A stretch of DNA of 35,238 nt. It comes from Thermoplasmata archaeon M9B1D (GTDB taxonomy: Archaea > Thermoplasmatota > E2 > DHVEG-1). The notes beneath the pieces are model-generated. The model made no database searches. It saw only the letters and a list, made by a program, of their open reading frames with translations, and was not told where the DNA came from. Location: positions 1-35,238 of the forward strand of contig MUGC01000001.1 of assembly GCA_002900535.1 (NCBI GenBank), written 5' to 3'. The translations under genes were made by a program, and so were the position numbers. Each line of letters begins with the position of its first letter. Positions within the stretch are counted from its first letter, which is position 1. Below are positions 5,528 through 28,673 of the stretch, in pieces.

Positions 5528-5914
5528 ATGAAAACAAATCTTAAATTTCAATTGGTTAAGTTTGAAGGGGCTTTGGCGTTCCAAATACATGAGCAAACTG
5601 AAGAGTGGAGAGAGAAAAGAAACAAAAAAATTTATCCTCACGAAGTTTTAGAATTTTATGCTAAAAAAAATATTCATATTTATTCTTTAAGAATTCCAGA
5701 TTTACGAATATCTCCTTATAATTTTGATATAGGATTACAAGGAATTAATAGAAAGAAAAATAATAGAGTTTGTTTATATAATAATTGTGGTAGTGATTAT
5801 TATTATAAAAAAATCCTTGAAGCCTTAAAACAATGGTCGGCTCACGTTTACAAAGAAACAAACCGAGAAGAACAACCTTTTCAAGATTTAGGAAACGGGG
5901 TTTTTGTTGTATAG
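5528..5914 (+). CDS. hypothetical protein
   Basis: 128-aa ORF with SD aagaggaataagttATG. Confidence 0.75.
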   Translation: MKTNLKFQLVKFEGALAFQIHEQTEEWREKRNKKIYPHEVLEFYAKKNIHIYSLRIPDLRISPYNFDIGLQGINRKKNNRVCLYNNCGSDYYYKKILEALKQWSAHVYKETNREEQPFQDLGNGVFVV

Positions 5915-5916
5915 TC

Positions 5917-6025
5917 AACTTGACCAGAAAGTGGTCAAGTTAGTGGTCAAGTTAAGTAGCAGTTAAATAAAAACTGTTAGTATTTATAAGGGTTTAAGTT
6001 ATTTTGTATGTTAACAAGTTAAGTA
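5917..6025. promoter_or_regulatory. Cluster of TGGTCAAGTT / CAAGTTAAGTA repeats in a 128-nt intergenic gap (iteron- or operator-like)
   Basis: aacttgacca (5917-5926) is the inverted copy of tggtcaagtt, which occurs at 5932-5941 and 5944-5953. caagttaagta occurs at 5948-5958 and 6015-6025. No T-run follows the 10-bp hairpin. Confidence 0.45.
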
Positions 6026-6042
6026 AAAATGAGGAGGTTAAG

Positions 6043-6258
6043 TTGAAAGGTTTTATTTATAAAGACATTAAAAGATTATGTAAAGAATATGGCAGACATA
6101 TTGAAGATTTTTCTTACTTTATGCGAGGTCAAACAGTTTGTGCTTGGAAAGATGGATTTTCCGCTTTTTATTACCTTAAAGATGTTAATAAATTCTTTAA
6201 AATGAATTTAGAAGAACAAGCAAGAGAATTGGAGGAAAAAGAAGATGAAGGAAATTAA
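6043..6258 (+). CDS. hypothetical protein (TTG start preferred over track start 6004)
   Basis: GAGGAGG at 6031-6037 lies 5 nt upstream of the TTG at 6043. The track start at 6004 is also TTG but has no SD. Confidence 0.6.
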   Translation: MKGFIYKDIKRLCKEYGRHIEDFSYFMRGQTVCAWKDGFSAFYYLKDVNKFFKMNLEEQARELEEKEDEGN

Positions 6259-6541
6259 AACGTTTGAGGATTTATTAAATGCTCTTAAAAAAATTAATAT
6301 ATGTGATAAAAAACAAATAATAGAGAGATATTATAATAAATTTTATATTTATTTCACTATTAAAGAAGTTTATTTTAAAGTTTTAAAATTTAAGAACGAA
6401 AAAGAATTTTATCTTACTCTTGACAAAGTTGATAGAGGATATGATTATGATGGTGCTGACGAAGAAGAGGTAACAAAAAGTGAAAATCCACATAAAATTT
6501 ATAATTTAATAAAATCAATTAAACAATGTGAGGAGGAGTGA
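6245..6541 (+). CDS. hypothetical protein
   Basis: 98-aa ORF that overlaps the upstream gene; an SD is present. Confidence 0.7.
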   Translation: MKEIKTFEDLLNALKKINICDKKQIIERYYNKFYIYFTIKEVYFKVLKFKNEKEFYLTLDKVDRGYDYDGADEEEVTKSENPHKIYNLIKSIKQCEEE

Positions 6542-13258: not shown

Positions 13259-14038
13259 TTAATATCCTATTGCAATCCAAGAAGCTGTTAAAGCACCTCC
13301 GCCACCATTCGAATCGTTTCCTAATACAATTTGTGATGTAGACGATGCTGCGCTATCCCAATATATAGTACTACTTCCTGTAAAATAACTTGCTTGAATT
13401 CCTGTAGCTTGTACATTGAATATAGCATTTGGAAAAGTTAAAGGTAAAGTTACTGTAACTTCAGAATCAGTTGCTATTGTTGCAGAAATTCCCCATTGTA
13501 TAATTATTTCATCAAAACCAGCACCAATCCCCACTGGTAATCTCATATATCCATTTGAAGCTCTACTTGTTCCATTAAATAAAGATTTTAAAGCTGTTGC
13601 TACAATCGCTCTTGAGCTATCTGTTCCCGCAATAACTTCTGCATTTGTTGCTATTTCAATAATACCTTTTACAGTAGTGCTTGCATCAGGAACAGTTTGA
13701 CTTACATATAATTTTTCATCTGTGCCCTTTTCAAGCAAATTATCGGCGTCAGAACTTATAAGATTATCGGCATCGGCTTTTAATTTTTGGTCTACAGAAC
13801 TTTTTTCCAGTAAATTATCACTATCAGAACTTATAAGATTATCGGCATCGGCTTTAATCAATCCATTTGTATCATCTTCAAGAAGATTATCGCTATCTTG
13901 CGAAATCATACTTTTCGCTAAATTTCCAACTGTTATTTTTTTTGTGCCATTTGGTGTTAAGTCTGTGACTGTAGGAACTAAATCATCATAATCAACACTT
14001 ACAACAGAATCTAATTCACTTATTTTTTTTTCGCTCAT
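13259..14038 (-). CDS. Tail fibre protein (gp53-like C-terminal domain)
   Basis: TTVKGIIEIATNAEVIAGTDSSRAIVATALKSL is a widespread fibre motif. The C-terminal GYMRLPVG...IIIQWG...VTLPLTFPN is typical of short fibre tips. The protein has internal 25-aa repeats. Confidence 0.75.
   Translation of the reverse strand: MSEKKISELDSVVSVDYDDLVPTVTDLTPNGTKKITVGNLAKSMISQDSDNLLEDDTNGLIKADADNLISSDSDNLLEKSSVDQKLKADADNLISSDADNLLEKGTDEKLYVSQTVPDASTTVKGIIEIATNAEVIAGTDSSRAIVATALKSLFNGTSRASNGYMRLPVGIGAGFDEIIIQWGISATIATDSEVTVTLPLTFPNAIFNVQATGIQASYFTGSSTIYWDSAASSTSQIVLGNDSNGGGGALTASWIAIGY
13706..13855. repeat. 75-nt in-frame tandem duplication inside the fibre gene
   Basis: tcagaacttataagattatcggcatcggcttt occurs at 13749-13779 and 13824-13854. 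The units encode KADADNLISSDSDNLLEKSSVDQKL and KADADNLISSDADNLLEKGTDEKL. Confidence 0.9.
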
Positions 14039-14062: not shown

Positions 14063-14821
14063 TTAAGCTACAGATGCAAGTCTTACATCAACTTCTCCGC
14101 TATTTGCCAATATATCAATTTTTAAATAAACCTTTAAAAATATCTCTTCATTGACAGCGAGTTGCTGTTCAGCCAAAGGTATAAATTCATCTTCATATTT
14201 ATCGTCAAGTCTAACTTCTTGAGTGATTGTTTGAAGAAGAGTAGTATCAGGAGTCAAAACTCCACCCGATTTTGTTGCTCCATACATTTCATATTTAATA
14301 GAAATTAGAGAAACTGCACCGTCAAGAGTAGCACCTGATAAAGTAGCATCGCCATCAAAAGCAATTGAAAACTCTTCACCTTCTGCGCCTACTTCATCAT
14401 AAGTAATTGTTAAAGTGTCTACTCCGTCTTCAGTATAAGTAGCCTTTGCGACATCTTCATCAGTTGAAGCATTTAAAACAGCTATGATATTGTCCAAAGT
14501 TCCCGGCAAATCGCCACCTATATTAATTTGATTTCCAGTAGCTCCGCTTGCAACAAAAGTGAATGCGACACCGTTTATTGTAAGGATTTCGTCAGCGCTA
14601 GGATTATCAGTAAAGGCTATTGTACCTGTTGCCTGATGTTGTAAATCCAAATCTTTAGGCATAAGTCCAGCTTTTACTTTATCACCACCAGCTAATAAAT
14701 AACCTGCTCCATAAGCTCCGTCTGTATTTCCTAATACATAAGATGTAGTTAAAGTTTGGTCTTCTGCGCATACGTCTTCTTGAGAACTCCAAACTTTTTT
14801 ATAATTAACTTTTTTTAACAT
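14063..14821 (-). CDS. Capsid-adjacent protein (decoration/head-fibre candidate) carrying a domain shared with the tail-tip protein
   Basis: 252 aa, immediately downstream of the major capsid gene. Residues ~64-171 align without gaps to residues ~281-388 of the 1046-aa protein. Confidence 0.7.
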   Translation of the reverse strand: MLKKVNYKKVWSSQEDVCAEDQTLTTSYVLGNTDGAYGAGYLLAGGDKVKAGLMPKDLDLQHQATGTIAFTDNPSADEILTINGVAFTFVASGATGNQINIGGDLPGTLDNIIAVLNASTDEDVAKATYTEDGVDTLTITYDEVGAEGEEFSIAFDGDATLSGATLDGAVSLISIKYEMYGATKSGGVLTPDTTLLQTITQEVRLDDKYEDEFIPLAEQQLAVNEEIFLKVYLKIDILANSGEVDVRLASVA

Positions 14822-14839: not shown

Positions 14840-15832
14840 TTATTCGTCACTAACAGTTATTACGTCTTGTTCCTTTAACATTTGTCTTGATTTAATCAAA
14901 ACAGCTTCATTAAATACGTCATATCTTGTATTAAAAGCTTTATCTTCTGGTCTCATTTCAAGTTTATCAGTTTTAATTTCATTGATAACCTTTCTTAAGT
15001 CATTATGATAATGCATTGTGATAGCTGTAGCGTCTTCAGGATAACAAGCCTCTAAAGCATCTTCCATTAATTTTCTTAAATCAGAAGAAGAAACATTAAT
15101 AGGAATATTGACAATAGCTGTAATTTTACGTGGGTCATTTAAAAGAGAATCTATAGCTGTATCATACAACATAACTTTTCCATATTGTTTGAATAATGTG
15201 CTATCCTCTGTATATGAACCAATTTCAACTAATGAACCATTAGCAACTAAATCTTTTCTAAAAATAGAAACATCATTTGTAATCATTGGATTCATTGCTG
15301 GATTATATAACATATTAATTTTGCCTTGTTTCCAAGCTACAAAAATTATATTATACATTTCTCCGTCAGTAGTTCCACCGGCATCAAATAATTTAGCTCC
15401 TAAATTTGTACCATAAAAATCTTTTCTATGATTGTCTTTAGCGAAATCTAAAAATTTTGTATATTGTTCAACTTCAAATGATTTTGCCGATTCATTTCCG
15501 ATTAATTCTTCATTTTCCATAATATGATTCATTAATTGTTCAACTGATAAATCATTAACTAAATCATTTGACATAGTATATTTATATGAAAATGGAACTA
15601 ATTGAAGTTGTTCACTAATTCTTTTTACGTCTTCTTCAGCATAACCGCCAGCAACACGTCTCCGAACTGGTTGACCTATACTGATTATTTTTCCGTATTT
15701 ATGCATTTTACCGTTATTTGTTGGACTTGCTGGTGCAAAATCAAATAAAGGAGTTGTATTCATAAATGCGTTTATAAAACCATGTTGCTCCTTAGCAAAA
15801 TTGATTCTTCTTAAAGTATTGTAATTTGGCAT
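14840..15832 (-). CDS. Major capsid protein (by position)
   Basis: 330-aa ORF directly after the scaffold-like gene and MuF/portal. No motif-level proof. Confidence 0.7.
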   Translation of the reverse strand: MPNYNTLRRINFAKEQHGFINAFMNTTPLFDFAPASPTNNGKMHKYGKIISIGQPVRRRVAGGYAEEDVKRISEQLQLVPFSYKYTMSNDLVNDLSVEQLMNHIMENEELIGNESAKSFEVEQYTKFLDFAKDNHRKDFYGTNLGAKLFDAGGTTDGEMYNIIFVAWKQGKINMLYNPAMNPMITNDVSIFRKDLVANGSLVEIGSYTEDSTLFKQYGKVMLYDTAIDSLLNDPRKITAIVNIPINVSSSDLRKLMEDALEACYPEDATAITMHYHNDLRKVINEIKTDKLEMRPEDKAFNTRYDVFNEAVLIKSRQMLKEQDVITVSDE

Positions 15833-15849
15833 TTTTTTTCCTTTTGTAA

Positions 15850-16428
15850 TTAATTATTTTTTAATTTTTTTGCAATATCCAAATTTAGATTTTTTTCATC
15901 TTTTGGATTTTTTGGGTCGGGTGTATTTTTGTCTACTTCTTTTAATTTAGTCAGTTTAAATTCTTCAAGTTTAGAGTTTGAATATTTTTCTTTTTCTCTA
16001 TCAAAAATTTCTTTAATTTTTGTAGCCATTTTAGAAAAATTTTGACAATCAACAATCTCTTCCCATTCATTTGCATTTAATTCACAATTTTCAAAAGCCT
16101 TCCGAAAAACTTCTTTTTTCTCATAAAGCTTAACTTTGTTCTGTAAAATTTCATTTTGCTCTTTTGCAGTCTTACCTTCTAAAGCTTTTTTTTCTTGTTC
16201 TGTTTTAATATCTTGCAAAGTTTCTGATAAAACTTTGTTTTGTTCTAAAACTTTTTGATTTTGCTCTAAAAGTTCTGAAATTTTTTTATCTTGTCCAGCT
16301 TTTACTTTTTTAAGTTCTTCTAAAGTTTCGGTGTTCTTATTATCACCACCTTGCTTTTTGTCTTCAGTTTCATTCTTGATGTTTGCAGAATCGCCACCAT
16401 CGGAAGCACCTGTTTTATCTTTACTCAT
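15850..16428 (-). CDS. Scaffolding protein (by composition and position)
   Basis: 192 aa, highly charged K/E/Q-rich and helical. It lies between the MuF-like and capsid genes. Confidence 0.65.
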   Translation of the reverse strand: MSKDKTGASDGGDSANIKNETEDKKQGGDNKNTETLEELKKVKAGQDKKISELLEQNQKVLEQNKVLSETLQDIKTEQEKKALEGKTAKEQNEILQNKVKLYEKKEVFRKAFENCELNANEWEEIVDCQNFSKMATKIKEIFDREKEKYSNSKLEEFKLTKLKEVDKNTPDPKNPKDEKNLNLDIAKKLKNN

Positions 16429-16502: not shown

Positions 16503-17357
16503 TTATAAGAAAATAATTATAGTTGTTTCTCTATCATTAATAGACCATTTCGCAGGAGCTAATCCATGTTTATAAAACTGTCCATTTGGATACTTAAAAG
16601 TTCCATTTTTTGTACTTATTTGTTTATTCATTTGAATTGATTGAGGACGAGTTCTATTGTCCAATGTTGAAATCATTTGTATTCTAACATTGCCAAAACC
16701 ATTAGCCTTTAATTCTTCAAATCTTTTATATTGTTGTAAAGATGCCATGCGCATACTTTCTGTTCTTGCTATTCTATAAGTACGATAAATATGGCCGTTT
16801 GTTCTCGTCAATTTGCCTTCTTTTAAGAGATTTAAAGTTTTTCTTGTGATTTTTCCGTGTCTGTCTCTAAAACCAAATTCAATATCTAATAATTTTGTTG
16901 TTTTTTCTATAGAAAATCCTTTATCTAAAGAATTTTCAATTATTTTTGTTGTTCTTAAAGCTAAATTTTTACTTCTTTTTAAAATTGATTTATTACTTAA
17001 AATATGATTAGTTATTCTAAATTCATAAGTTGTTGGAAATTTTTTTAAATTATCTATTTTTAAAAAAGTTAATTTTCTTTTTAGTGTATTTTCTATTAAA
17101 AATTTGCTTTCAATTGATGATTGATTATAGGAATTTAAAATTGATTTTTTTATTTTTTTAAACATATTGAAATATTTTGAAATAATTATTTTTTCAATTT
17201 GTCTAATTTGAATTTTAGACATATTAGGTTTCAATCTTTTTCTAATTAATCTTCTTATTTCTGATATAGTTTTAAAAGATAAAATATTTATTAACGCTAT
17301 TCTTTCTATCTCTTTTTTTCTTATCTCTTTTTGTTCTTTCTTTTTTGGAGTTAGCAT
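16503..17357 (-). CDS. Head morphogenesis protein, Mu F / SPP1 gp7 family
   Basis: YRTYRIARTESMRMASLQQY...STLDNRTRPQSIQMNKQ fits the Phage_Mu_F domain. It lies directly downstream of the portal gene. Confidence 0.8.
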   Translation of the reverse strand: MLTPKKKEQKEIRKKEIERIALINILSFKTISEIRRLIRKRLKPNMSKIQIRQIEKIIISKYFNMFKKIKKSILNSYNQSSIESKFLIENTLKRKLTFLKIDNLKKFPTTYEFRITNHILSNKSILKRSKNLALRTTKIIENSLDKGFSIEKTTKLLDIEFGFRDRHGKITRKTLNLLKEGKLTRTNGHIYRTYRIARTESMRMASLQQYKRFEELKANGFGNVRIQMISTLDNRTRPQSIQMNKQISTKNGTFKYPNGQFYKHGLAPAKWSINDRETTIIIFL

Positions 17358-18739
17358 TATAAATTTTCATTATCTAAATCAGGTAAACTATCCATAGCTT
17401 CTTTTTCTGATAATTTCGCCAATTCTTCTGCTTTATCTTCGGAATAACCGGAACGTCTAAATATCTCTTTTTGTGGTAATCTTCCCCCAGCCCTTAAAAT
17501 AGCTTCTAAATCTGCAAGTTCATCTTTTGGCTTATTTCTTGGGAATTCGTAATTTATTTCAAAAGTATCATATTCAGAAATAGAATTTACATCAAGTCCA
17601 GTCCAATAGCTCTTTAAAAGTTCATCTAATTCCTGTAAACTTTTTTTCCATTCCATTTCGGTATTTTTAGAATCATTTTCAAGAAGTCTAAATAATTGAT
17701 TTATTTGAAAGGCTGTAGCATTTTTTAAAGTACTTAAAGCTTTTGGGTCAATGCTCGAAGAAACGACCCAAATTCCATTCCAAACATATTCTAAAACAAG
17801 CTTAACAAATTCGGGATTAATATCTTTAGTAATAAATTTTGCTTCAGAATTTTCGGAATCAGCGATTATCACGCCAGTTTTTTCCATTTCTTTTTTGGTC
17901 TTTTCGTCAATAAGTCCCATATTTTTTAATAATAAATATGCTTGTCTGAAAGTAGCCGATTCAGTAGAATTATCGCTCGCCAATCTATCCCATGTATCAA
18001 GCAAAGTAATAGCTTTTTCACTATTTCCTCTACATTTATTATTATTTTTCCATTCAATTACAGGATTTTTAGTAAAGCCATGCGGACTTTGTTTAGATAA
18101 AATTATAGAATTGTTTGTTTGTTTGTTTTTTGATTTTTTATATGTATATTCATATACATTGGTATTATCATAAATCCATATTATTTTATCTTTATCTTCA
18201 TCTTTTTCATAAGAATAAATTACAGAATATAATTTCTCGTCTGTTTTTTTATCTTTTATAATTAAACAATTATAATTTTTGATTTCTTTGATTTTAACTC
18301 CACCATTATATAAAAAATTTAATGTGTATGTATTTCCTGTTGCTGATACATTTTCCATTAAAGTTTTTAGAAATGATTTGGTATAATTTATTCTATCAAA
18401 TTCTTTATATTTATTTTTAACTTCATCTTTAATATTTTCACTATAAACTCTTGTAATATCCCCGCCTAAATATCCGGCTTTTGTATTAGCAATTAAAGAA
18501 AATAAATCAAATGACATTTTAATATTTGGGTCAGCATCAGTAATTTTTTCTCTAACCAAAATAGGAACACCATCAGCTTTTTTGGGGTCGTCCCATTCAA
18601 ATTTACTTGCTTTTTTTCCTTCAAGACGTCTATTTTGTCCCCATTTTTCACAATCAAATTCTCTTTTATCATCAATTGTTCTTATTATTAAATCAGTATT
18701 TATTTTTATTTTTTTTGCTTTTTTATCCATAAAAATCAA
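17357..18739 (-). CDS. Portal protein (SPP1 gp6-like)
   Basis: 460 aa. NPVIEWKNNNKCRGNSEKAITLLDTWDRLASDNSTESATFRQAYLLLKNMG matches the gp6-type portal core pattern. A MuF-like gene follows. Confidence 0.85.
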   Translation of the reverse strand: MIFMDKKAKKIKINTDLIIRTIDDKREFDCEKWGQNRRLEGKKASKFEWDDPKKADGVPILVREKITDADPNIKMSFDLFSLIANTKAGYLGGDITRVYSENIKDEVKNKYKEFDRINYTKSFLKTLMENVSATGNTYTLNFLYNGGVKIKEIKNYNCLIIKDKKTDEKLYSVIYSYEKDEDKDKIIWIYDNTNVYEYTYKKSKNKQTNNSIILSKQSPHGFTKNPVIEWKNNNKCRGNSEKAITLLDTWDRLASDNSTESATFRQAYLLLKNMGLIDEKTKKEMEKTGVIIADSENSEAKFITKDINPEFVKLVLEYVWNGIWVVSSSIDPKALSTLKNATAFQINQLFRLLENDSKNTEMEWKKSLQELDELLKSYWTGLDVNSISEYDTFEINYEFPRNKPKDELADLEAILRAGGRLPQKEIFRRSGYSEDKAEELAKLSEKEAMDSLPDLDNENL

Positions 18740-21700
18740 GCCTCCCTTGCAGTAATTGTAGCCGTTAAATCTTCATTATATCTAATATTTATAATAACAC
18801 ATTCAAATATAGGATTAACACCTATATCAAAAATATCTCCCTTATAATAAAAATCTTCAGAAATGCCTTTTATCATACCAGCACCTCTAATATTTCCATC
18901 ATAAGCAATAGGTGATATTTCAATTTCATCTTTAAAACCATCATTTAATACATTAAAAACTTTAATTTGTGGAATTTCATTTGTAAAGTCTAAAGAACGA
19001 ATTGTTATTTGAGAATTTTTTTCAATTTGAATAAATGAATAAAGTTTAAATCCTATTAAATTCCCACCACTTAAAATAAGTTCTTTAATCAATCCAGTAC
19101 TTTCTTTCTCTAAATCACATGTATTAGAAATATAAATCCTATCATAAAGTTTTAAACTTAAAGCTTCTAAATTAACAGAAAATTCAAATACATTTCTTTT
19201 TTCTTGAATCAATTTTAAAGCATAAGTTCCTAATTTAATAACAGAAGATTTATCAGTTAAAAATTGATAATCAGTTTTTATAATTTGATAATCAACATCA
19301 CTTGTGCCAGATTTTGGTATTTGATAAACATTATCATCATAATAATATAAAGTTATTTCATCTTCTGAATAATCATCATTATTTATAAATCCAATTCTCA
19401 AAGCATCTGTTAATCTTCCAATTTGTGGAGTCCATTTAAAATTGAAAGAATTATGTTGATTAAATAAATCAATTGGTTCTTTTGAAGGGTTATCAATTAC
19501 AAAATAATATTTTCCGTTATAAAAAGTAAATGAAGCTTGACAATTTGATAATAAAGTTTGAATTAATTCTAAAATTTTAAATTGTTCTGATATAATTCCA
19601 TCAACATAATAATCTTCAGTTTCACACCAATTATATAATTCTACAAGAGAATCATTATCAATGCTATCAATGCTTTCAGCACGAGGGTTTATTAAATCAT
19701 TTGTGAGTAAATCTCTTATTATACTTGCAGGATTACGAGTTTCTGCTGTTGTAGACCAATTTGTGCCATCCCAAATGGGCAATTCTGATTTAGCCAAATA
19801 ATTATATTGTCTTAATGTACCTGATAATGAGCCATAAGCTATCGCTTCAACTGAAATTTGGTTTACATTAGGTAAAATTGTTTCATCAATTACATCTCCA
19901 TCGACATAAAAATTAAATTCACTTAAAACAGGATAACCAATATCAAAATTTGTTTTTTCATACAAATCCGCCGATGAAACCTTTATTGTATATTTATCTT
20001 TTGTTAAAGTCATTCCTATTGTTCTAAAAAATAATTCGTCAGCTTGATTTATATTATCAGGTGGACTAAAAGAAACTATTGCTCCGTTCACAGTGGTTGT
20101 CGAGGAAGATAAAGGTTGTTTATTCCCATTAATATCTCTTACATATAAAGTTGCTGTATCTATATCCTGAAAAGACCCTGATTGTGTTTTATATTTAACA
20201 TTAATTGACGCAATTCTCGACTCTCTTCCCCCATCGCTTTTTTGTTTATAAAGACCAACTGGAAAAGCGATTATTATATCTATATCTGTTGTATCATCAG
20301 GGCTTGTCTCAAGAACTTCTGAAACAACACCTATATATTTATTTATAGGATTATTTATTGTGTAAGAATCATTGAATAAATCTGTTGTCAATTCTTCTTC
20401 AACAATTTCTACTTCAAGACCATCTTCAACTTCTTCAGGCAAAATCCTTGTGTCTGTCGTAGCAAAAAATCTTGTCTCAATTATTCCTGAAATATTTTGA
20501 GTCCAAGTTTTTGTTCCTATGTATCGATAAGTTGTACCTCCTACTAAAACTAAATCACCGAATTCTATTAAATATGTTTGTGATAAAGTAATTTCTGATG
20601 GAGTCGGCAAAGTATCATCTAAAATATCAACTTCAATTTTAAAATTTTTATCACTAAAATTTGAACTATCAACATTTGTAAATTCTAAAATAAAATCATA
20701 TTGTAAATAAGTAGAAACTCCGCCGGTCATTTGAGTAACTAAATAACCATCTGGCAAATTTGCGTCAAGAGTGAATTCGTTTCCTTCCGCTCCCTTAGAA
20801 TCATAAATAATTATTAAAGTATCTGAACCATTATTTGAATAAGTTGCAGGGGTTACAAGAGGATTAGTTGAAGCATTTAAAACCGCTACTGTGTTATTTA
20901 ACGCAGTTAATAAAGTTGTACCTATTGCAATTTCAGTCGGACTTCCAGCAGTAACAACATAAGTAAAAACAACACCGTTTATAGTAATTGTCGAACCCAC
21001 ATTCGGTTTTATACCATACCAAATAGATCCTTGAGCATAACCTTCAACATTTTGATTATAAACTTCATTTGAAATTTCAAAAACTTCTTGTGTAATATCA
21101 ACTGATAATTGCTCTTCTCGTGGAACAGGTTTGACATTATCAAAACCTATAAAAGAACTTCCACCATAAGATTTATTTATATCTAAAAAATTACTGGAAT
21201 AAGACCCAACATTTGTCTCTCCAATTTTTTCATTATAAATATTAACATTATCATAATTTGATATAAAGTATTGTCTATATTTATTAGTAGATGAACCATC
21301 AGCAATAAGCCTATATGGATATTGCGCATAAAAAGGAGTTTGTATAGTTTCACCAAAAACATAAGGTAAAATTGATTTTGAAATCGTATTACTTGCTCCT
21401 TTAATTTCTGGTGGTTGAGATGTACCTTGACCTTCTTGAGGCGAAATTCTAAAAGATGGAGGTTTTATAGGAAACAATAATTTTGTTAAAGCAGAAACAG
21501 AACCGCCAATTATCAAACCAGCACCTATTTGTGTCAAAATGGGATTTCCTGTTGCGATTCCCGCAACAACTAAAACAGCACCAACAACAATTGTAAAGAC
21601 ATCAGCGACAAAATCTCCTTCAGGAGATTTAATATATTCACAAATATCACCTTCTTTTAATCTATATCTTGATTTTTTCTTTTTTCCATTTACATAAACA

Positions 21701-21876
21701 AATTTTAATTCTTCTTTTGTAAATAATTTTTTTAATTTTATTCCAGCACATCGTTTTCCTTTTATTTTTTCATTTAAAAGAACCTTTTCACGAAAAAAAA
21801 CAATTCCTCGTGGTCTTCTTAAAATAAATCTTTTTATTTCACTAAAAAAATATAAAATTTCATCAATTATATACAT
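18736..21876 (-). CDS. Fused tail assembly protein I-like / host specificity protein J-like central tail fibre
   Basis: Residues ~1-185 parallel lambda gpI (FTIVVGAVLVVAGIATG...GAGLIIGG...LFPIKPP...ILPYVFGET). The C-terminal part parallels gpJ (IWDGTNW...NPASIIRDLLTN...LYNWCE...). Confidence 0.8.
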   Translation of the reverse strand: MYIIDEILYFFSEIKRFILRRPRGIVFFREKVLLNEKIKGKRCAGIKLKKLFTKEELKFVYVNGKKKKSRYRLKEGDICEYIKSPEGDFVADVFTIVVGAVLVVAGIATGNPILTQIGAGLIIGGSVSALTKLLFPIKPPSFRISPQEGQGTSQPPEIKGASNTISKSILPYVFGETIQTPFYAQYPYRLIADGSSTNKYRQYFISNYDNVNIYNEKIGETNVGSYSSNFLDINKSYGGSSFIGFDNVKPVPREEQLSVDITQEVFEISNEVYNQNVEGYAQGSIWYGIKPNVGSTITINGVVFTYVVTAGSPTEIAIGTTLLTALNNTVAVLNASTNPLVTPATYSNNGSDTLIIIYDSKGAEGNEFTLDANLPDGYLVTQMTGGVSTYLQYDFILEFTNVDSSNFSDKNFKIEVDILDDTLPTPSEITLSQTYLIEFGDLVLVGGTTYRYIGTKTWTQNISGIIETRFFATTDTRILPEEVEDGLEVEIVEEELTTDLFNDSYTINNPINKYIGVVSEVLETSPDDTTDIDIIIAFPVGLYKQKSDGGRESRIASINVKYKTQSGSFQDIDTATLYVRDINGNKQPLSSSTTTVNGAIVSFSPPDNINQADELFFRTIGMTLTKDKYTIKVSSADLYEKTNFDIGYPVLSEFNFYVDGDVIDETILPNVNQISVEAIAYGSLSGTLRQYNYLAKSELPIWDGTNWSTTAETRNPASIIRDLLTNDLINPRAESIDSIDNDSLVELYNWCETEDYYVDGIISEQFKILELIQTLLSNCQASFTFYNGKYYFVIDNPSKEPIDLFNQHNSFNFKWTPQIGRLTDALRIGFINNDDYSEDEITLYYYDDNVYQIPKSGTSDVDYQIIKTDYQFLTDKSSVIKLGTYALKLIQEKRNVFEFSVNLEALSLKLYDRIYISNTCDLEKESTGLIKELILSGGNLIGFKLYSFIQIEKNSQITIRSLDFTNEIPQIKVFNVLNDGFKDEIEISPIAYDGNIRGAGMIKGISEDFYYKGDIFDIGVNPIFECVIINIRYNEDLTATITAREA

Positions 21877-22223
21877 TTAACCCCCTTTATATAATAAAAT
21901 TTACAATATCTATCGGGAATTTTATTTATTTTTGTACCTAAAATTGTCCTATGAATATATTTATTATTTCCTACACAATAACCTATATGTTCATTAATTC
22001 CGCTTTTATGCACAATACAAGTTTTTTTTGGTTCTTTTATTTCTTCAAATAATAAATTAGCTCTTAAATGTTTAGCGAAATCTTTTTCATTTCCTTCTAT
22101 TACAAAAGGATATTTTGGTAAATCTATATTATGTTCTTCTTTAAAAATATCTTGAATAAGAGTCCAGCAATCACATTTGCCGAGTTCATATTTTTTATTA
22201 AAATGTTTCAAATAATTTTTCAT
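21867..22223 (-). CDS. Tail tip protein K-like, NlpC/P60 peptidase fold
   Basis: 118 aa with candidate Cys/His/His residues at GKCDCWTLIQDIF, NEHIGYCVG and KYIHRT. It occupies the position of lambda K. Confidence 0.7.
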   Translation of the reverse strand: MKNYLKHFNKKYELGKCDCWTLIQDIFKEEHNIDLPKYPFVIEGNEKDFAKHLRANLLFEEIKEPKKTCIVHKSGINEHIGYCVGNNKYIHRTILGTKINKIPDRYCKFYYIKGVKCI

Positions 22224-22714
22224 AAGTATAAATTTGGAAATAAATTTTTATTATATCTTATTGTGCCTATATTATAACCTATTGACAATATAAGATTGAT
22301 ACCTAAATTAATTTGCGTTTTATCAATATCTAAACTAATAACTTCAAAAGTTCCTCTATCATATTTTTCAGAAATTAAATTGCCCGATGTATCTCTTTCT
22401 ATATGAGCCAAATATATTTTACATTGTATATTTTTATTTTTATAAGAACTTTTAACCGCTTCTCTTATTTTATAAGTTAATTGTCTATCAATATTCGCTA
22501 TACCTATAGAAGTTCCAGAATTTTCACCTTGCGTATTGAAAAGCAATTTAAAAGGTAATCCTAAATATTCATTACTATCAATTGTGATAGTTTTATTATT
22601 ATTTATAAATCTATAAGTTTCCAACCAAGAAGAATGGGAAAATTCAAGCAAAATATATAAACCTCTGCCTAAATATCTACTATATGCTGATTTTTTTAAT
22701 TCAAATTCGCTCAT
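22220..22714 (-). CDS. Minor tail protein L-like
   Basis: 164 aa, the second gene after the tape measure. EYLGLPFKLLFNTQGENSG..IGIANIDRQ resembles the gpL/DUF1833-type pattern. Confidence 0.5.
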   Translation of the reverse strand: MSEFELKKSAYSRYLGRGLYILLEFSHSSWLETYRFINNNKTITIDSNEYLGLPFKLLFNTQGENSGTSIGIANIDRQLTYKIREAVKSSYKNKNIQCKIYLAHIERDTSGNLISEKYDRGTFEVISLDIDKTQINLGINLILSIGYNIGTIRYNKNLFPNLYL

Positions 22715-23160
22715 ACAATTAATTCTTTGGTTGCTACAAGATTTTCTCCGCCTTCAGTCAATAAATATTCTCCGCCTTCAGTCAATAAAGAATAATCGAC
22801 ATAAATTTTAGTCTGTTCTAAAGATAATTTAACTTCTATTTGATAATAATTTGAAACTTGTCTATATAAAGGTTTATCAAGAAATCTTGCAGTTCTGTCA
22901 ACTTCAATTCTGCAATCATAAAAAGTAAATGGTATAGTTCCTTGTTTTATTGTATTTCTATACCAGCTTTTAAAATCTAAATAATCTTCTAAAGAAACTA
23001 TTATATAACCTTTTATTATATTATCTATATCTGTAAAAGTTTCTCTTCTAAATGGTTGTCCAGCGTCTGGAGAGACTTCAATAAATCCGTTTTGGTCTTC
23101 GTCTTGAAAACTATTTGATAATAAATCTCCCCATCTCCATTTTTCTAAAATTTCTGTCAT
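22711..23160 (-). CDS. Minor/distal tail protein (lambda M position)
   Basis: 149 aa, the first gene after the tape measure, with an ATGA start/stop overlap. Confidence 0.5.
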   Translation of the reverse strand: MTEILEKWRWGDLLSNSFQDEDQNGFIEVSPDAGQPFRRETFTDIDNIIKGYIIVSLEDYLDFKSWYRNTIKQGTIPFTFYDCRIEVDRTARFLDKPLYRQVSNYYQIEVKLSLEQTKIYVDYSLLTEGGEYLLTEGGENLVATKELIV

Positions 23161-24983
23161 GATGCTTGTACTCCTCTTAAATCTTGATTTTGTAAAGCGG
23201 TTTCAAAAGCGCTTTTACTTCTTTCACTTGATAAAGCACTATTAAATTGTTTTATGAAAATATCTCTGTCATTATTTGGTCTTTTTATAACTTCAATTTG
23301 AGATGGTGTTTGGTTAAAAATATTTATATTTCCACCTCCGCTTGTTTCAACTCCAAGCTTTCCATTTTTAGTTCTTGTCAATGGTAAAATAGCTTCTGCC
23401 CCAGCCTCTCCCATTAAACCAATTCCTTTTTGCATTGGAAATAAAGTAGGAGAACTTACAACACCACCATTTGCGAAAGGCATTACTTTATTATCTTTAA
23501 ATACATTTCCTTTTGCTGATGGCGTAGATGCTATTCCAGTTGCTCCACCTCCGAAAATATTAGCAATACTTCTTGCAATTCCAGTTGCAATAAGTTGCCT
23601 TGCGATTTCTTGTAAAATTCCTATTATCACTTTTTTAAATCTCTCTCCAGCTGTTTCACCTTGTTCAAAAGGTGTTGTCAAGGCATTTGCTAAATCATTT
23701 CCGATTATATTTGCTACATCGTCAATTGAAATTAAAGCCTCTTGAAATTTCGTCGCACTTTCAGCTAATTTTAATTGTTCTTCATTTGCTTTTAATTCTT
23801 TTCTTAAATTTTTAAAAGTTTCAGTTCCTTGCTGACCTGTAATAGCTAAATCTCTTAATTGTTCTTTGATTTTTTCTGTTTGTTCTTTTAATTTATCATA
23901 AGTTAAAATTGTTGATTCTTGAATTTCAATATTATCATTTGCATATTTTCCAGCGTCTCCAATATTTCTTAAATCATCTGCAGTTTTAACATCGCCAAAT
24001 TCATCTAAAGCCTTTTTAAGATTTCCTATATCTTTAATTAAATAATTAAAATTAAAAGTTGTTGCTCTTTGTAAAACTTTAAGAGAAATTGTAAAAACTT
24101 TTATTGAATCTATTATTATTTTAAAAGTTTTGACTAAATCATCGCCTTCATTATCAACAAAATCTCTTATTGAGATTGCCATACTTTCCAATTCAGGAAC
24201 TAATTGTTGACCTAAACTATCTTTCAATAAAAGAATTGAATTATTTAAACGATTAAAATTAGCTCTTGCTGATTGTGAAGCTTCTTCAACATTTATACCC
24301 AAACTCTTTCTTATTTCTTCCGCAAAAGTAGGTAAAAAATCTTTTGATACTATTTCTCCAGTTTTAATTAATTTAAAAAATTCTTCTCTACTTTTTCCTA
24401 AGGAATCTATAGCTAATTGTACAGCACCTGGTAAGGTATCACCAAGTTGACCACTTATTTCTTCTAAAGAAACTTTGCCTTTACCAGCAACTTGTTGTAA
24501 TGCTCTAAATACAAAAGATGTTTCTGTGGCACTTAAATTTAATGAAACTAAAGCATCAGAAACATCAGAAAATATTTCCTTTGTTTCTTCAAAAGTTAAA
24601 CCACTTCTTAATGCTGATGCGCTAAATCCTGCAAATCCATCAATAGCACTTCTTAAATCAATACCTAATCTTTGTGCCTCATCTGATATAAATTGATAAG
24701 ATTGTCCAGCAAGTTCAGCACTTCCTGCAGAGGCTAAAAGTTTATTATCTAAAGCTTCTAATTCAAGAGAAGTATTTATGAGTTCTTTTCCAAAAGTAAT
24801 AATTTGACGAACACCAAAAGCAATACCTAAAGTTTTTAATGAATTTTTTAAAATTTTAGCTGTAGAATTTAATTTTTTAGCACTTTTCCCAGTTTTATTT
24901 ATAGAATCATCAAGCTTTCTAAATTGAGAAGCGACAGACTCCGCATTTGTTACAATTATAATTCTTACTTTTCCATCTGCCAT
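23157..24983 (-). CDS. Tape measure protein
   Basis: 608 aa, long, helical and low-complexity, with a Gly-rich C-terminal segment. It lies immediately after the G/GT chaperone pair. Confidence 0.85.
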   Translation of the reverse strand: MADGKVRIIIVTNAESVASQFRKLDDSINKTGKSAKKLNSTAKILKNSLKTLGIAFGVRQIITFGKELINTSLELEALDNKLLASAGSAELAGQSYQFISDEAQRLGIDLRSAIDGFAGFSASALRSGLTFEETKEIFSDVSDALVSLNLSATETSFVFRALQQVAGKGKVSLEEISGQLGDTLPGAVQLAIDSLGKSREEFFKLIKTGEIVSKDFLPTFAEEIRKSLGINVEEASQSARANFNRLNNSILLLKDSLGQQLVPELESMAISIRDFVDNEGDDLVKTFKIIIDSIKVFTISLKVLQRATTFNFNYLIKDIGNLKKALDEFGDVKTADDLRNIGDAGKYANDNIEIQESTILTYDKLKEQTEKIKEQLRDLAITGQQGTETFKNLRKELKANEEQLKLAESATKFQEALISIDDVANIIGNDLANALTTPFEQGETAGERFKKVIIGILQEIARQLIATGIARSIANIFGGGATGIASTPSAKGNVFKDNKVMPFANGGVVSSPTLFPMQKGIGLMGEAGAEAILPLTRTKNGKLGVETSGGGNINIFNQTPSQIEVIKRPNNDRDIFIKQFNSALSSERSKSAFETALQNQDLRGVQAS

Positions 24984-25599
24984 TAAAAACCTCTAAAATT
25001 AGTCAACTCACATAAAGTTCTTATTCCTATTGCAATATTACAAGGTAAATCTTGTATATTTAATTTTAACATTCCTATTCTAAACCATCGCCAAATCTCG
25101 AAAACTTCATAAAATTCATTATCTAAATTTTTCCATAAATCTTTTTTCTTTCCGATTGCCACAGGATTTTTAACATCACCTAAAAAATACATTCTATTTT
25201 CTTCTCGCTTTTCAAGTTTAATTTTTCCTTTTTTAAGAATATGAAAAGCGATTATAACTTTTTTTCGGTTTTATTCGCCTCCTTAATCGCATCAGTTAAG
25301 GATTTAACAACTTCAAGAACAATTTTAAAAATATCTTTTCCGCCAAGTTTTAACATATCGGAAAAATTCTCATAATCAATTTCTTTACCATCTTCATTAA
25401 TCAATTGTGGTTTATTTTCAAATCTTAAAAATAAATCACATGCAATTTTCAAAACACTTTCATGATGATTTTCAGAAGTTAATAACAATTTAGTTGAGTC
25501 AAATTGATTTGGATAACGAAAAATAATTTTAAATTTATCATTATCTTTACAAATAGACGGAATTATTGCGATTTCTTTAGTAAATACATTTATTTTCAT
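24983..25599 (-). CDS. Tail assembly chaperone GT-like fusion made by -1 programmed frameshift (~205 aa)
   Basis: The -1 frame is open from 25270 to the stop at 24985-24983, which I checked codon by codon down to the track ORF 24983-25192. Its end overlaps the tape-measure ATG (TAATG). Confidence 0.65.
25252..25599 (-). CDS. Tail assembly chaperone (G-like, zero-frame product)
   Basis: 115 aa between the tube and tape measure genes. It ends just after a slippery heptamer. Confidence 0.75.
   Translation of the reverse strand: MKINVFTKEIAIIPSICKDNDKFKIIFRYPNQFDSTKLLLTSENHHESVLKIACDLFLRFENKPQLINEDGKEIDYENFSDMLKLGGKDIFKIVLEVVKSLTDAIKEANKTEKKL
25258..25264 (-). promoter_or_regulatory. -1 frameshift slippery heptamer A_AAA_AAG
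   Basis: On the minus strand, GAA AAA AAG TTA TAA. The heptamer A AAA AAG is in the X_XXY_YYZ phase of the zero frame and lies two codons before the stop. Confidence 0.65.
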
Positions 25600-25600
25600 T

Positions 25601-26269
25601 TTATACTACTGGTTGACTTAATTTAAAATAAGATGGTTTAACTTCATCATCTTCAACAATTCTAAAGTTTGAAGAAAATGTTTGCGCTTCCCCTTGAGAA
25701 ATTCCCGCGCTAAATCCACCCAAAACAACCGGTAATAAATAGAATGATGTTGGTTCATCATTTATTGATTCTTTATTTACCTCTAATTGCAAATAAATTT
25801 TTGTATTATCTATTTTTGAAATAATTAAAGTTGATAAATCTGCTGATTGGCTTACTATATCTATAACTTTATTCATAAAGCTATTTGCTAAATCCGTCAA
25901 TCCGACAGTCATTACACCTTCTATAGTTCCCGTGATATCTGAACGACCAAATTTATAAGTTTTAACTCTATCACAAATTGTTGTATCTTCAATTTCATCT
26001 TTTGCAAATTCGAGACTTGCATTTTGAACATCACATAAATTTGTAAATGTCATTGGTTTTACTTTATCGCCTGTTTCAGGTGTAATGCCTGTATCAGAGT
26101 AAAAAGGATATCCTGCCTCTGCATTTGTTGGTAAACCTGATGGACTTCCTACTGCAGTTATTACATAATAACCAGCGCTTAAAGGAGTCACACCATCACC
26201 TTCTATTTCAGCACCGAGCGACACACTCGCAAGGTTTCCGTCTAATTCATTCAATTTTTTTGTACTCAT
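25601..26269 (-). CDS. Major tail (tube) protein
   Basis: 222 aa, upstream of G/GT. NASLEFAKDEIEDTTICDRVKTYKFGRSDITGTIEG resembles lambda V/TP901-1 tube N-domain patterns. Confidence 0.75.
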   Translation of the reverse strand: MSTKKLNELDGNLASVSLGAEIEGDGVTPLSAGYYVITAVGSPSGLPTNAEAGYPFYSDTGITPETGDKVKPMTFTNLCDVQNASLEFAKDEIEDTTICDRVKTYKFGRSDITGTIEGVMTVGLTDLANSFMNKVIDIVSQSADLSTLIISKIDNTKIYLQLEVNKESINDEPTSFYLLPVVLGGFSAGISQGEAQTFSSNFRIVEDDEVKPSYFKLSQPVV

Positions 26270-26673
26270 TATTGTACCTCATAAGTTAAAGTTTTTGATA
26301 AAATTTCACTATTTAATCCATTAGCCCAAACCCCAGCCGTAGAATTATCGTGAGTAGTTAAATAAACTATGTAATCTTTTCCATCAAAAGTCAATTTTTT
26401 TATAGCAGAAATAAATTTATCAAGCTGTCTTTTGATATAAAAAGCATTTGAAATATTTTTATGATAAATAGTCCATTGTAAAGAAGCAATACCACCTTTT
26501 GTAAATTGATTATCTGCGCAAACATCTGGACGACTTCCATCTGCATCTAAAGAATTTTGAATAATATAAGGATATTGATTATCTTCTCCAATATCTCCAA
26601 AACCAAATTTTAAAGTAAATCCTGATACTGTAAAATTATTTTTTATATAATCGTAAATTGCTTGTTCAAACAT
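26269..26673 (-). CDS. Tail terminator / tail completion protein (DUF3168-like, by position)
   Basis: 134 aa between the gp10-like and tube genes. The N-terminal segment is IYDYIKNN. Confidence 0.5.
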   Translation of the reverse strand: MFEQAIYDYIKNNFTVSGFTLKFGFGDIGEDNQYPYIIQNSLDADGSRPDVCADNQFTKGGIASLQWTIYHKNISNAFYIKRQLDKFISAIKKLTFDGKDYIVYLTTHDNSTAGVWANGLNSEILSKTLTYEVQ

Positions 26674-27012
26674 TTATTTCCTATTAATTATTTTTGCAAC
26701 AATGCTATCAACTTCTTTTTGGACTTTTCTTGCAGAGTTTCGCATAACTGGATTAGGTCTCCGTCCTTTTTTATAAGTAAAAGTTTTAGTTTTATATCCA
26801 GCAGGGAAACCATATTCAACAGCTTTTGAATATTCTGCATTGGCAACAACTTCGCCATTTCCTGCTTTAATATTATTACGATAAAATCCTGTGTCAACTG
26901 GAGAATTTTTTTTTGCTTCCGCTTCTATTCTTGAAGTAATTTTGATAACAGCCTCTTTTATTCCATTTATTGTCAGATTTTCTAAATTGGGGACATTAAC
27001 TTCTATTGGCAT
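26674..27012 (-). CDS. HK97 gp10-family head-tail joining protein
   Basis: ...EAEAKKNSPVDTGFYRNNIKAG...AEYSKAVEYGF fits the gp10-family VDTG.LR.SI...YA..VEYG pattern. Confidence 0.7.
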   Translation of the reverse strand: MPIEVNVPNLENLTINGIKEAVIKITSRIEAEAKKNSPVDTGFYRNNIKAGNGEVVANAEYSKAVEYGFPAGYKTKTFTYKKGRRPNPVMRNSARKVQKEVDSIVAKIINRK

Positions 27013-27358
27013 TTATATTTTTTTCTACATAATTAATTAAATTTTCACCTAAAATAAACATTTCTTTTTCTTTGTCATTAGGAAATTGATAATTATATTT
27101 TTTCTTATGATAATTTCTCATAATTTTTGATATTAAATTTAAAACATCATCAAAACAAACTTCTTTAAATAATTGCATATCTTTTTTACAAACTGGACAT
27201 TGCATTGATTGTTTTTCTAAATCATATCTGTCTTTTGAATAAACAAGTAAAATTGCCTTTCCACAATTTATACAAAATAATTCTTTTTGACTTACTAATT
27301 TTTCATCATCAAGATTAATAATGTTATTATTCATCATTAATTTCTTCCATTGTTTCAT
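26996..27358 (-). CDS. Zinc-ribbon protein, paralogue 2
   Basis: 120 aa: IINLDDEKLVSQKELFCINCGKAILLV...CPVCKKDMQLFKEVCFDDV. It is colinear with the upstream 90-aa paralogue. Confidence 0.7.
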   Translation of the reverse strand: MKQWKKLMMNNNIINLDDEKLVSQKELFCINCGKAILLVYSKDRYDLEKQSMQCPVCKKDMQLFKEVCFDDVLNLISKIMRNYHKKKYNYQFPNDKEKEMFILGENLINYVEKNINANRS

Positions 27359-27367
27359 TATGACTTT

Positions 27368-27640
27368 TTAATTTACTATTATCAAATTCTTTTTTAAAAG
27401 TATATCCGTATTTTCTTCATGTATTTTTTCATTTTGTCTTGCAAGAATATCAAAAACATCGTATAAACATAAATCCTCATATTTTCTTAATTTTTGCTTG
27501 CAAACTGGACATTCTTCATTTGAAGTATCTTCATAATCTTTGGATACCATTATAATACTTTTACAACAATTTATACAAAAAAGTTTTTCAACTTTATGCG
27601 GTGTATTTTTTTCTAAATTTATTATTTTATTTTTTGTCAT
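27368..27640 (-). CDS. Zinc-ribbon protein, paralogue 1 (ATG 27640 preferred; the track start 27658 is TTG)
   Basis: MTKNKIINLEKNTPHKVEKLFCINCCKSIIMV...CPVCKQKLRKYEDLCLYDV. Confidence 0.65.
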   Translation of the reverse strand: MTKNKIINLEKNTPHKVEKLFCINCCKSIIMVSKDYEDTSNEECPVCKQKLRKYEDLCLYDVFDILARQNEKIHEENTDILLKKNLIIVN

Positions 27641-28040
27641 AAACTTTAATTTTATCAATTAAATATTGTGGATTTTTAACACAAATTAAATCAACATGGT
27701 TTCCTATTCCCGATACTCTTATTGTCTCATAACCAAAAATAGAACTAAAAATAGTTTTTCTTCTTTCTATATTTTCAATATTATTTAAAAATAGTTTATC
27801 AACCAAAATATTATTTATTCCGAAAGTTGATTCTATAAAATCTTCATGCAAAAAAATCTTTGAACTTACTCTAATAGCGAAGTCGGTAGGATAATATTTT
27901 ATTATATCAATAATTGGAATAATAACTAAACTAAATAAATATTCCGATGGAAATAAATCAAATATATTCTTTCCTAAAAAATTAAGTATATAAAAAACAA
28001 TAAAAATTCCAAATATTCTTATTATATAGTCTATTGTCAT
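27627..28040 (-). CDS. Membrane protein with two N-terminal hydrophobic helices and a bPH/YdbT-like domain (start uncertain)
   Basis: From ATG 28040: MTIDYIIRIFGIFIVFYILNF...LFSLVIIPIIDII, then ...GYETIRVSGIGNHVDLICVKNPQYLIDKI. The track ORF starts at a TTG at 28121 and overlaps the upstream gene. Confidence 0.6.
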   Translation of the reverse strand: MTIDYIIRIFGIFIVFYILNFLGKNIFDLFPSEYLFSLVIIPIIDIIKYYPTDFAIRVSSKIFLHEDFIESTFGINNILVDKLFLNNIENIERRKTIFSSIFGYETIRVSGIGNHVDLICVKNPQYLIDKIKVYDKK

Positions 28041-28077
28041 ATCTATACAACCAAGAATTTTACAAACTTTTATTTGT

Positions 28078-28314
28078 TCATTTTTTCTTTGCACTTTTTT
28101 TTCTTTTCTTTTTCTTTTCAATACTCCAAACTATTTTTGAACATCTTGTTTTGCTCATTCCACTATCTCTACAAGAAGAATAAGCTTTTTTTGAAGAAGA
28201 CTTTTTTATTCCACGAGGTGCTAAATAATAACCTTTTTTTCCTTTAACAACATTACTTAAAGGAAAACCCAATTTTTTCGCTCTTGCTCGTGCTTTTGCT
28301 TTAGTTTCAGGCAT
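28078..28314 (-). CDS. Small highly basic protein
   Basis: 78 aa: MPETKAKARARAKKLGF...EKKKKRKKSAKKK. The SD is aattggaggttttATG. Confidence 0.65.
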   Translation of the reverse strand: MPETKAKARARAKKLGFPLSNVVKGKKGYYLAPRGIKKSSSKKAYSSCRDSGMSKTRCSKIVWSIEKKKKRKKSAKKK

Positions 28315-28328
28315 AAAACCTCCAATTA

Positions 28329-28673
28329 TTAAACATTTTTATTATAAAATTGTAATTTGAATTCACAATGTTGCCCCTCGTCAGGCTCAATCCCACTAAC
28401 GCCTAAAGGCTGTGATTGTTTACCGCTAACAATATATTTTATTCCTTCATATTCAATCAAATCGTTTTCTTGAATAATAGAATTTAAAGAAATATCGCAA
28501 AATAAAATACCATCAACATTCATGGTATCTTTGGCATTTACAAAAGAATTCCTTGAAGATGGTGTTTGAACAAGACCTTTAAAGGTTTGAATTTTTGAAT
28601 AATCATCAGGTGTTGAGAATTCACCCTCTGTATATCTATATAAATCTATATCCTGATAATAATCATCTATCAT
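28329..28673 (-). CDS. Head-tail adaptor / head closure protein (HK97 gp9-, SPP1 gp16-like)
   Basis: 114 aa. ...FKGLVQTPSS...DGILFCDIS...IEYEGIKYIVSG...HCEFKL fits the Phage_H_T_join pattern. Confidence 0.55.
   Translation of the reverse strand: MIDDYYQDIDLYRYTEGEFSTPDDYSKIQTFKGLVQTPSSRNSFVNAKDTMNVDGILFCDISLNSIIQENDLIEYEGIKYIVSGKQSQPLGVSGIEPDEGQHCEFKLQFYNKNV

Follow-up and report, generated by a model that had tools for sequence, protein, structure and literature searches.

The window analysed here is the whole stretch of 35,238 nucleotides at positions 1 to 35,238 of contig MUGC01000001.1 (assembly GCA_002900535.1, Thermoplasmata archaeon M9B1D). It holds a phage, known from metagenomic contigs only, that forms one contig of a 1.69-Mb metagenomic bin (metagenome-assembled genome, MAG). 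The first 144 bases of the window recur exactly at its end (direct repeat, 1-144 = 35095-35238), and the window is therefore a complete phage genome, circular or circularly permuted, of about 35,094 bp. Two of its structural proteins share a domain of about 110 residues. One is a protein of 252 amino acids (aa), P0001, encoded beside the major capsid gene; the other is P0002, a 1046-aa tail-tip protein in which I-like and J-like parts are fused. P and L numbers denote the proteins and loci collected for comparison. The structural genes lie on the minus strand of the window, and the features concerned are the following.

13259..14038, minus strand: first tail-fibre gene (259 aa), directly downstream of the 252-aa gene; Pfam Gp53-like_C at E 6e-15 and phrog_4209 (tail fiber)
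14063..14821, minus strand: P0001 gene (252 aa), with an N-flank (aa 1-62), the domain (aa 63-172) and a C-flank (aa 173-252)
14306..14635, minus strand: first domain copy (P0001 aa 63-172); phrog_28344 at E 1.4e-13, family profile at E 1e-46
14462..14479, no strand assigned: 18-nt stretch identical in the two genes, encoding VLNAST on the minus strand
14840..15832, minus strand: major capsid gene of the epsilon15 gp7 / BPP-1 type; PF20911 (GP7) at E 2e-3, NCBIfam MCP_gp7_epsi_15 at E 2e-5
18736..21876, minus strand: P0002 gene, a 1046-aa fused gpI-like/gpJ-like tail-tip hub, from phrog_32, phrog_31 and Foldseek matches
20713..21042, minus strand: second domain copy (P0002 aa 279-388), from the family profile (E 3.5e-34) and an alignment with 20 homologues
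20866..20883, no strand assigned: partner of the 18-nt stretch, identical to 14462-14479

Two copies of one domain

Sequence comparison indicates that the segments of P0001 and P0002 are homologous copies of a single autonomous module. The initial annotation of this DNA had placed the shared domain at residues 64-171 of P0001 (14309-14632) and 281-388 of P0002 (20713-21036) and had counted 45 identities by hand over 108 ungapped positions; these coordinates are exact, and the recount gave the same figure. The pairwise BLASTP that it had proposed remained significant after composition adjustment, aligning residues 59-153 of P0001 with residues 276-370 of P0002 (42/95 identical, 0 gaps, E 6e-21). 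A profile of the domain matched both proteins by hmmsearch (P0001 at E 1.1e-46, P0002 at E 3.5e-34) and found no third match, either within the window or elsewhere in the 1.69-Mb bin. The probability that the likeness is a matter of composition or chance, arising from low-complexity segments rich in Gly, Thr, Ala and Asn, is practically nil. The domain is indeed rich in these four residues, and its weak matches among PDB sequences are antibody light chains of like composition, but this explanation was rejected on the BLASTP and profile statistics, and a motif pattern kept across 291 domains and a confidently modelled globular fold also speak against it.

The 18-nt identity between the two genes is likewise real, AGTTGAAGCATTTAAAAC being found at both 14462-14479 and 20866-20883. 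Its translation, VLNAST, is the motif that the family conserves most strongly, and a run as long as this has P ~0.026 given both amino-acid sequences and the codon usage of the phage. Codons are the same at 22 of the 42 identical residues, and the chance expectation is 22.0. Because the conserved motif and AT-biased codon usage explain the run, and codon identity is that of chance, the 18-mer is not evidence for recent DNA exchange, and its reading as a mark of recent gene conversion was rejected.

An AlphaFold2 model of the P0001 domain, built from a 32-sequence alignment, predicts an autonomous globular fold of the alpha/beta type, comprising roughly eight short strands and two helices, one of 14 residues and one short. 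The predicted local distance difference test score (pLDDT) is 86-98 within the domain and 35-78 in the flanks. A Foldseek search, another check proposed at the outset, gave as the best solved match of the domain a ~110-residue region of a sheath protein: cyanophage A-1(L) sheath 8kee_C, over 111 columns, with a root-mean-square deviation of 2.7 A, a Foldseek probability of 1.0 and 20% identity. Other sheaths came next, including those of Pa193 and phage 7-7-1. The matched region of the A-1(L) sheath is presumably its outer domain III. The outside density of this sheath is described as flexible between domains I and III (PMC10966104). In sheath proteins generally, additional domains face outward, at a distance from the core that touches the tube (PMC9230969). 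When PDB sequences were searched with the profile, no sheath came up, and the only matches were antibody chains at insignificant values (E 0.16-0.8). Homology between the domain and the sheath is not established, because identity is only 20% and a match at the sequence level is lacking; unlike the A-1(L) protein, moreover, the carriers in this phage are no sheaths, being a siphophage tail-tip hub and a capsid-adjacent protein. Among the predicted viral structures of BFVD, many phage structural proteins matched, including a 'major tail protein', a protein labelled major capsid protein, two proteins of RcTitan and gp68 of PhiJL001. Membership in the immunoglobulin (Ig)-like domain family was considered and rejected, as there is no Pfam Ig match at E<=0.01 and the model is alpha/beta with a 14-residue helix.

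Homologues of P0001 align over the central ~110 residues only, and the remainder of each belongs to quite different proteins. With one representative per 50%-identity cluster, the domain profile matches 6,471 representative proteins at E<=1e-3 and 2,652 at E<=1e-10; they range from 165 to 1,876 aa, and many bear 2-10 tandem copies. Carriers were tallied by a Pfam scan of 112 family members. Phage_tube_2 accounts for 21 of these, Phage_cement (the capsid cement of E217 gp24 / Pam3 gp6, PF22758) for 7, DUF3383 and CBM_5_12 for 3 each, and FNIII-A_GpJ for 2; represented once each are lambda gpD (gpD HDPD, PF02924), Phage_tail_2, a hub of the PhiJL001 gp84 type, a flagellin in which the domain lies between the N and C helical regions, and an FlgE hook protein. 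Additional carriers are the crAss ring protein P0020, retrieved in the first search, and the Laminin_G_3 protein P0116. Tail tube proteins of Rhodobacter phages also carry the domain, two members are encoded in the position of a tail-tube gene, with the terminator on one side and the tape-measure chaperones on the other, and JGI names some members 'tail sheath gpL-like'. Masking the domain in the 202 collected proteins leaves about 90 carrier groups that are unrelated to one another, mostly singletons. In bacteria, the domain was observed in a flagellin, where it occupies the variable central part flanked by Flagellin_N and Flagellin_C, and in FlgE-like hook proteins, in up to four copies (P0172, P0146, P0060).

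No Pfam or NCBIfam model covers this domain (Pfam gives none at E<=0.01 for P0001). It is covered by phrog_28344 only, a family listed with function unknown (P0001 at E 1.4e-13), and a literature search found no paper that names it. A column tally over the 291 domains showed that both copies retain almost every position that is conserved in 70% or more of them; in P0001 numbering, the family-conserved positions are G66, N83-G84, T88, L116, Y129, G145, G148 and G168. These are mostly Gly, Asn, Thr and hydrophobic core residues and look structural. The loop motifs SGATGNQ and SGATL are missing from the J copy.

The tail-tip hub and the capsid-adjacent protein

By predicted fold and sequence families, P0002 is a gpJ-type tail-tip hub. 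Its gpI-like hydrophobic N-terminal stretch matches phrog_32 (tail assembly protein I) at residues 81-132, residues 690-917 match phrog_31 (J) at E 1e-19, and NCBIfam attach_TipJ_rel is hit at E 3.6e-22 with 78.5 bits, under its curated cutoff of 140. With the AlphaFold2 model of P0002 as query, Foldseek returned E-values from 5e-25 to 1e-8, led by the Sf11 tail (5e-25) and lambda gpJ (8k35_A, 1.5e-22) and including the tips of T1 and T5. The gpJ fold of lambda gpJ/TipJ (8k35, 8xcg, 8iyk) and of the T1 and Sf11 tips is shared over approximately residues 390-1046 (E 1e-19 to 5e-25). In contrast to those proteins, P0002 is fused to a gpI-like N-terminus and has a 109-aa insert, which could be set against 19 homologues that are free of the domain.

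When P0002 and 20 homologues were aligned with MAFFT, the domain was present only in P0002 and in P0040 of locus L004, which is 76-79% identical to it. The other 19 homologues (905-942 aa) show a single clean gap of about 109 residues at P0002 279-387, with conserved flanks. The J domain is therefore a lineage-specific insertion into a loop, since only these two proteins have it and all the others show the gap. The insertion site lies between two conserved beta-strands of the N-terminal J-like region. The extra domain that the initial annotation had recognised in the tail protein thus proves to be a clean insertion of 109 aa, absent from 19 of the 20 homologues. Its location had been given as between the gpI-like and gpJ-like parts, at a place where lambda was said to have no counterpart, which is correct in so far as the insert stands some 90 residues past the gpI-like stretch, but it falls within the N-terminal J-like part and not at the exact I/J junction. 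The survey of related phages that had been called for detected the J insert in P0040 of L004 and in none of the IMG/VR or genome loci examined; no copy of the domain lay within 10 kb at any of 25 IMG/VR loci, 16 being close relatives, or at any of six GTDB genome loci. Three distant J-like proteins, P0080, P0111 and P0090, carry the domain at other positions (aa 474-597, 348-472 and 71-178, respectively), which suggests repeated independent insertions into tail-tip hubs.

A gap of 19 bp separates the P0001 gene from the major capsid gene that precedes it, and one of 25 bp from the first fibre gene that follows. Outside the domain, the protein is beta-rich in a model of low confidence, and the C-flank forms a long beta-hairpin at aa 172-204. 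Its sole full-length homologue is P0003 of locus L001, 59% identical and likewise encoded after the capsid gene. Beyond P0003, no relatives of the flanks were found by phmmer against the 202 collected proteins or by a word-indexed search of the C-flank. The flanks gave no Pfam family even at E<=10, no PDB sequence match and no credible Foldseek match, although the last is a weak test of fold because they are modelled at pLDDT 35-78.

The window's capsid gene, whose matches to PF20911 and MCP_gp7_epsi_15 are both below cutoff, is 56% identical to the L001 capsid gene that the P0003 gene follows. The epsilon15 gp7-like capsid type occurs in the window, L001 and L004. A PF05065-type capsid was identified in 15 wider relatives with a readable capsid gene (including L002, at 17307-18278), and L009 has a third type (5558-6475). 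In the PF05065-type relatives, the capsid gene is directly followed by fibre genes whose N-termini are homologous to that of the window's 259-aa fibre. A P0001-type gene was seen only with the epsilon15-type capsid, in the window and L001, and is missing in relatives with other capsid types; because it is present only there, the 252-aa gene came, and stays, with this capsid. Among the syntenic relatives, the capsid has been swapped and the portal, MuF-like and scaffold genes stay homologous. No further phages with this capsid type were found in IMG/VR or JGI metagenomes. Both domain copies are seen together in the window only, because the J gene of L001 is cut, L004 ends before the capsid-adjacent gene and no more such phages were found.

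The capsids of BPP-1 and epsilon15 have a small cement protein (PMC3863775). In BPP-1, this is Bbp16, a jellyroll protein of 140 aa with a gene number next to that of the capsid gene Bbp17, and gp10 of epsilon15 occupies similar capsid positions (PMC3863775). P0001 without its domain has about 142 aa, versus 140 aa for Bbp16. Because capsids of this type use a small cement protein and P0001 minus the insert is of similar size, the likeliest reading of P0001 is a cement or decoration protein of the capsid into which a display domain has been inserted. With BPP-1 Bbp16, epsilon15 gp10, the PF22758 proteins and lambda gpD as the reference, P0001 resembles cement proteins in its small size, its gene position beside an epsilon15/BPP-1-type capsid and its beta-rich flanks, and members of the domain family are themselves fused to PF22758 cement (7 of 112) and to a gpD-like protein (1). 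It differs from them in that its flanks match none of the cement families by sequence or fold. In the PF22758 member P0097, furthermore, the best-matched domain copy is C-terminal to the cement fold, whereas the domain of P0001 lies in the middle of its carrier.

Comparable pairings were found in two other phages. In RcTitan, gp13 has one domain copy (E 3e-24) and is encoded between the major head protein gp11 and the adaptor gp14; gp17, the tail tube protein (PMC8601537), has two copies. In PhiJL001, gp68 has one copy (E 1e-9) and follows immediately after the coat protein gp67, and another copy occurs in gp75, within the neck/tail block. Three unrelated phages, the window phage, RcTitan and PhiJL001, thus use the module once beside the capsid gene and once on the tail side. 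This pairing, together with the cement and gpD fusions, makes capsid-side and tail-side use of one module credible.

A different placement of P0001, in the tail or fibre apparatus, would put both copies on the tail; the protein would then be a fibre adaptor or tail decoration encoded by the first gene of the fibre block. This alternative deserves consideration but is doubtful. The gene is 25 bp upstream of a fibre gene, and in relatives the fibre block comes directly after the capsid, but the gene is absent in relatives that have homologous fibre N-termini and another capsid type. Tail proteins are the commonest carriers of the domain and the hairpin modelled in the C-flank (aa 172-204) recalls tube-like proteins, whereas the flanks themselves match no tail family and seven family members are bona fide fusions to cement proteins. 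The RcHartney counterpart of RcTitan gp13 is annotated as a 'tail protein', yet the RcTitan and PhiJL001 counterparts are encoded between the capsid and head-tail adaptor genes, the usual place of a decoration protein. Assignment of P0001 to the capsid is accordingly preferred here. The initial annotation had proposed that the same module is mounted on head and tail tip. Its presence on two structural proteins is borne out by their homology, and the head location of P0001 is plausible from gene position and co-inheritance with the capsid type.

Relationship between the two copies

Intragenomic domain shuffling had been offered as the source of the two copies, and this proposal was not supported. 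The P0001 domain is 62-67% identical to the domains of P0004, P0007 and the tube protein P0006, all otherwise unrelated to it, versus 41-44% to the J copy, and synonymous sites between the two paralogues are saturated (rate of synonymous substitution, dS, 1.76). In a tree of 291 domains, both copies fall in one 15-member clade with weak support (69). In a more careful tree of 59 rows, they are not sisters: the J copy is on a long stem (0.94) with P0103 (support 94/86), whereas P0003 and proteins of a ~230-aa class are the neighbours of the 252-aa copy. The genomic context of the members of that class nearest to the P0001 domain (P0008, P0010, P0037) was uninformative. Forcing four sequences into one clade costs 14 log-likelihood units, with p 0.325 in the approximately unbiased (AU) test.

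From these comparisons, the two copies would be old paralogues within one subfamily and not recent copies of one another; intragenomic copying, if it happened, would be old. It is unlikely, though conceivable, that one copy was made from the other within this lineage of phages and then evolved rapidly in its new surroundings. Such a history would fit the confinement of both copies to a narrow sublineage (the window, L001 and L004) and their absence from about 20 relatives, and the long stem of the J copy could reflect acceleration. Neither the shared 15-member clade nor the AU test, which does not reject the four-sequence clade, is at odds with it. The greater identity of the P0001 copy to domains of unrelated proteins argues the other way, as do the pairing of each copy with a different clade in the free tree, a codon identity no higher than expected (22 vs 22.0) at saturated dS, and flanking DNA that is not shared between the copies.

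Whatever their common history, the copies seem to be maintained. Measured against the orthologues, each domain is as well conserved as its carrier. The J copy is 80% identical to its orthologue, and the rest of J 72-82%; the 252-aa copy is 67% identical to its orthologue, and its flanks 47-61%. The ratio of nonsynonymous to synonymous substitution rates (dN/dS) is ~0.19 for the J copy (against L004, like the rest of J) and ~0.21 for the 252-aa copy (against L001). Both copies are under purifying selection, and therefore both are in use.

Possible role and genomic setting

Taken as a whole, these observations are probably best explained by a widespread, unnamed accessory domain that is present on the J hub and on a likely capsid cement protein, where it would have a display role, the two copies being old paralogues. 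Phages would insert or append this domain at solvent-exposed sites of subunits that form large repetitive assemblies, namely, tail tubes, sheath-like proteins, ring proteins, capsid cement or decoration proteins and tail-tip hubs; in bacteria, it would occupy the outer region of flagellin and hook. In the window phage, one copy would have been placed in an N-terminal loop of the I-J tail-tip hub and the other in the middle of a small beta-rich protein encoded after an epsilon15-type capsid gene. There, the domain may act as a non-essential display module, whose weak, multivalent binding would be to surface polymers, whether of the host or of the environment, or to adjoining subunits.

A display or weak-adhesion role is the most likely one by analogy with phage Ig-like domains, for which weak adhesion to surface carbohydrates has been proposed (Fraser et al. 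2006, as cited in PMC9230969 and PMC10276861). The parallel is drawn because carrier positions are exposed, tandem arrays are frequent and CBM_5_12 or lectin-like domains occasionally co-occur. Like the Ig-like domains (Big_2, I-set, FN3), this is a small autonomous domain distributed across capsid decoration, tube, sheath and tail-tip proteins, with horizontal spread, frequent tandem copies and dispensability for the core fold of the carrier; with both kinds, a single phage can have the domain on one protein at the head and on another at the tail. Unlike them, it has no Ig beta-sandwich, its 14-residue helix lying on a sheet, and no Ig-type Pfam match, and its family extends to flagellin and the flagellar hook. 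The adhesin or carbohydrate-binding role raised in the initial annotation is a candidate function. Lattice stabilisation may be an alternative role.

Several points weigh against this explanation. The description of P0001 as a cement protein comes from position, size and co-inheritance, and its flanks are without detectable relatives; its gene also directly precedes the fibre genes, and there is the RcHartney 'tail protein' annotation mentioned above. In the AlphaFold2 model of the full J protein, from a shallow alignment, the insert has pLDDT <50, and with the J domain modelled at such low confidence, its outward orientation on the tip is an assumption. The likeness to the A-1(L) sheath domain appears to be structural only. 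Finally, inspection of the conserved columns over the 291 domains identified no ligand, conserved pocket or catalytic residues.

A bolder proposal, and an improbable one, is that the domain is a universal outer-surface module exchanged between virions and flagella and binding ligands of one shared class, for example glycans of the host or of mucus. If this were true, the copies on head and tail tip would turn the whole particle surface to reversible adherence before the tip commits, and the ligand would give a name to a family of >6,000 clusters that is missing from the annotation libraries at hand. In the more modest account favoured here, phages are already known to distribute one accessory domain over the proteins of head and tail, and no new mechanism is involved. 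Since this habit is established for Ig-like domains, the case leaves the understanding of phages unchanged. It still has some value. The module has a non-Ig fold and belongs to a very large family (6,471 clusters) that has no Pfam or NCBIfam model at hand and that connects the virion surfaces of phages with the outer domains of flagella. A name for this family would help to annotate some flagellins and thousands of structural proteins of phages. Moreover, the J insertion and the capsid swap that brought the 252-aa gene are both precisely delimited against domain-less relatives, which offers clean constructs for tests of function.

The surrounding genome provides some further observations. The order of the structural genes is unusual, with terminase, neck, tail and I-J genes followed by the portal, head genes and fibres (window 17357-31662). 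A complete gene list of L002, a distant relative, shows the same order as the window. The segment comprising portal, MuF, scaffold, capsid and fibre genes also has matching positions in IMG/VR and genome loci. Within the head module of L002, a glycosyltransferase family 8 gene (15488-16141) lies between the MuF-like and scaffold genes, and the window is without a counterpart. In L001, the closest relative, the portal is split into two open reading frames of 274 and 173 aa (1342-2707), each homologous to the single 460-aa portal of the window, which reflects a frameshift or an assembly error. Relatives of the I-J protein, 46-48% identical to it, are found on GTDB contigs (L039-L044) from MAGs labelled Candidatus Gastranaerophilales, Candidatus Limenecus avicola and others. 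These are probable prophages because some lie on contigs of 80-147 kb, and the phage group probably infects gut Melainabacteria.

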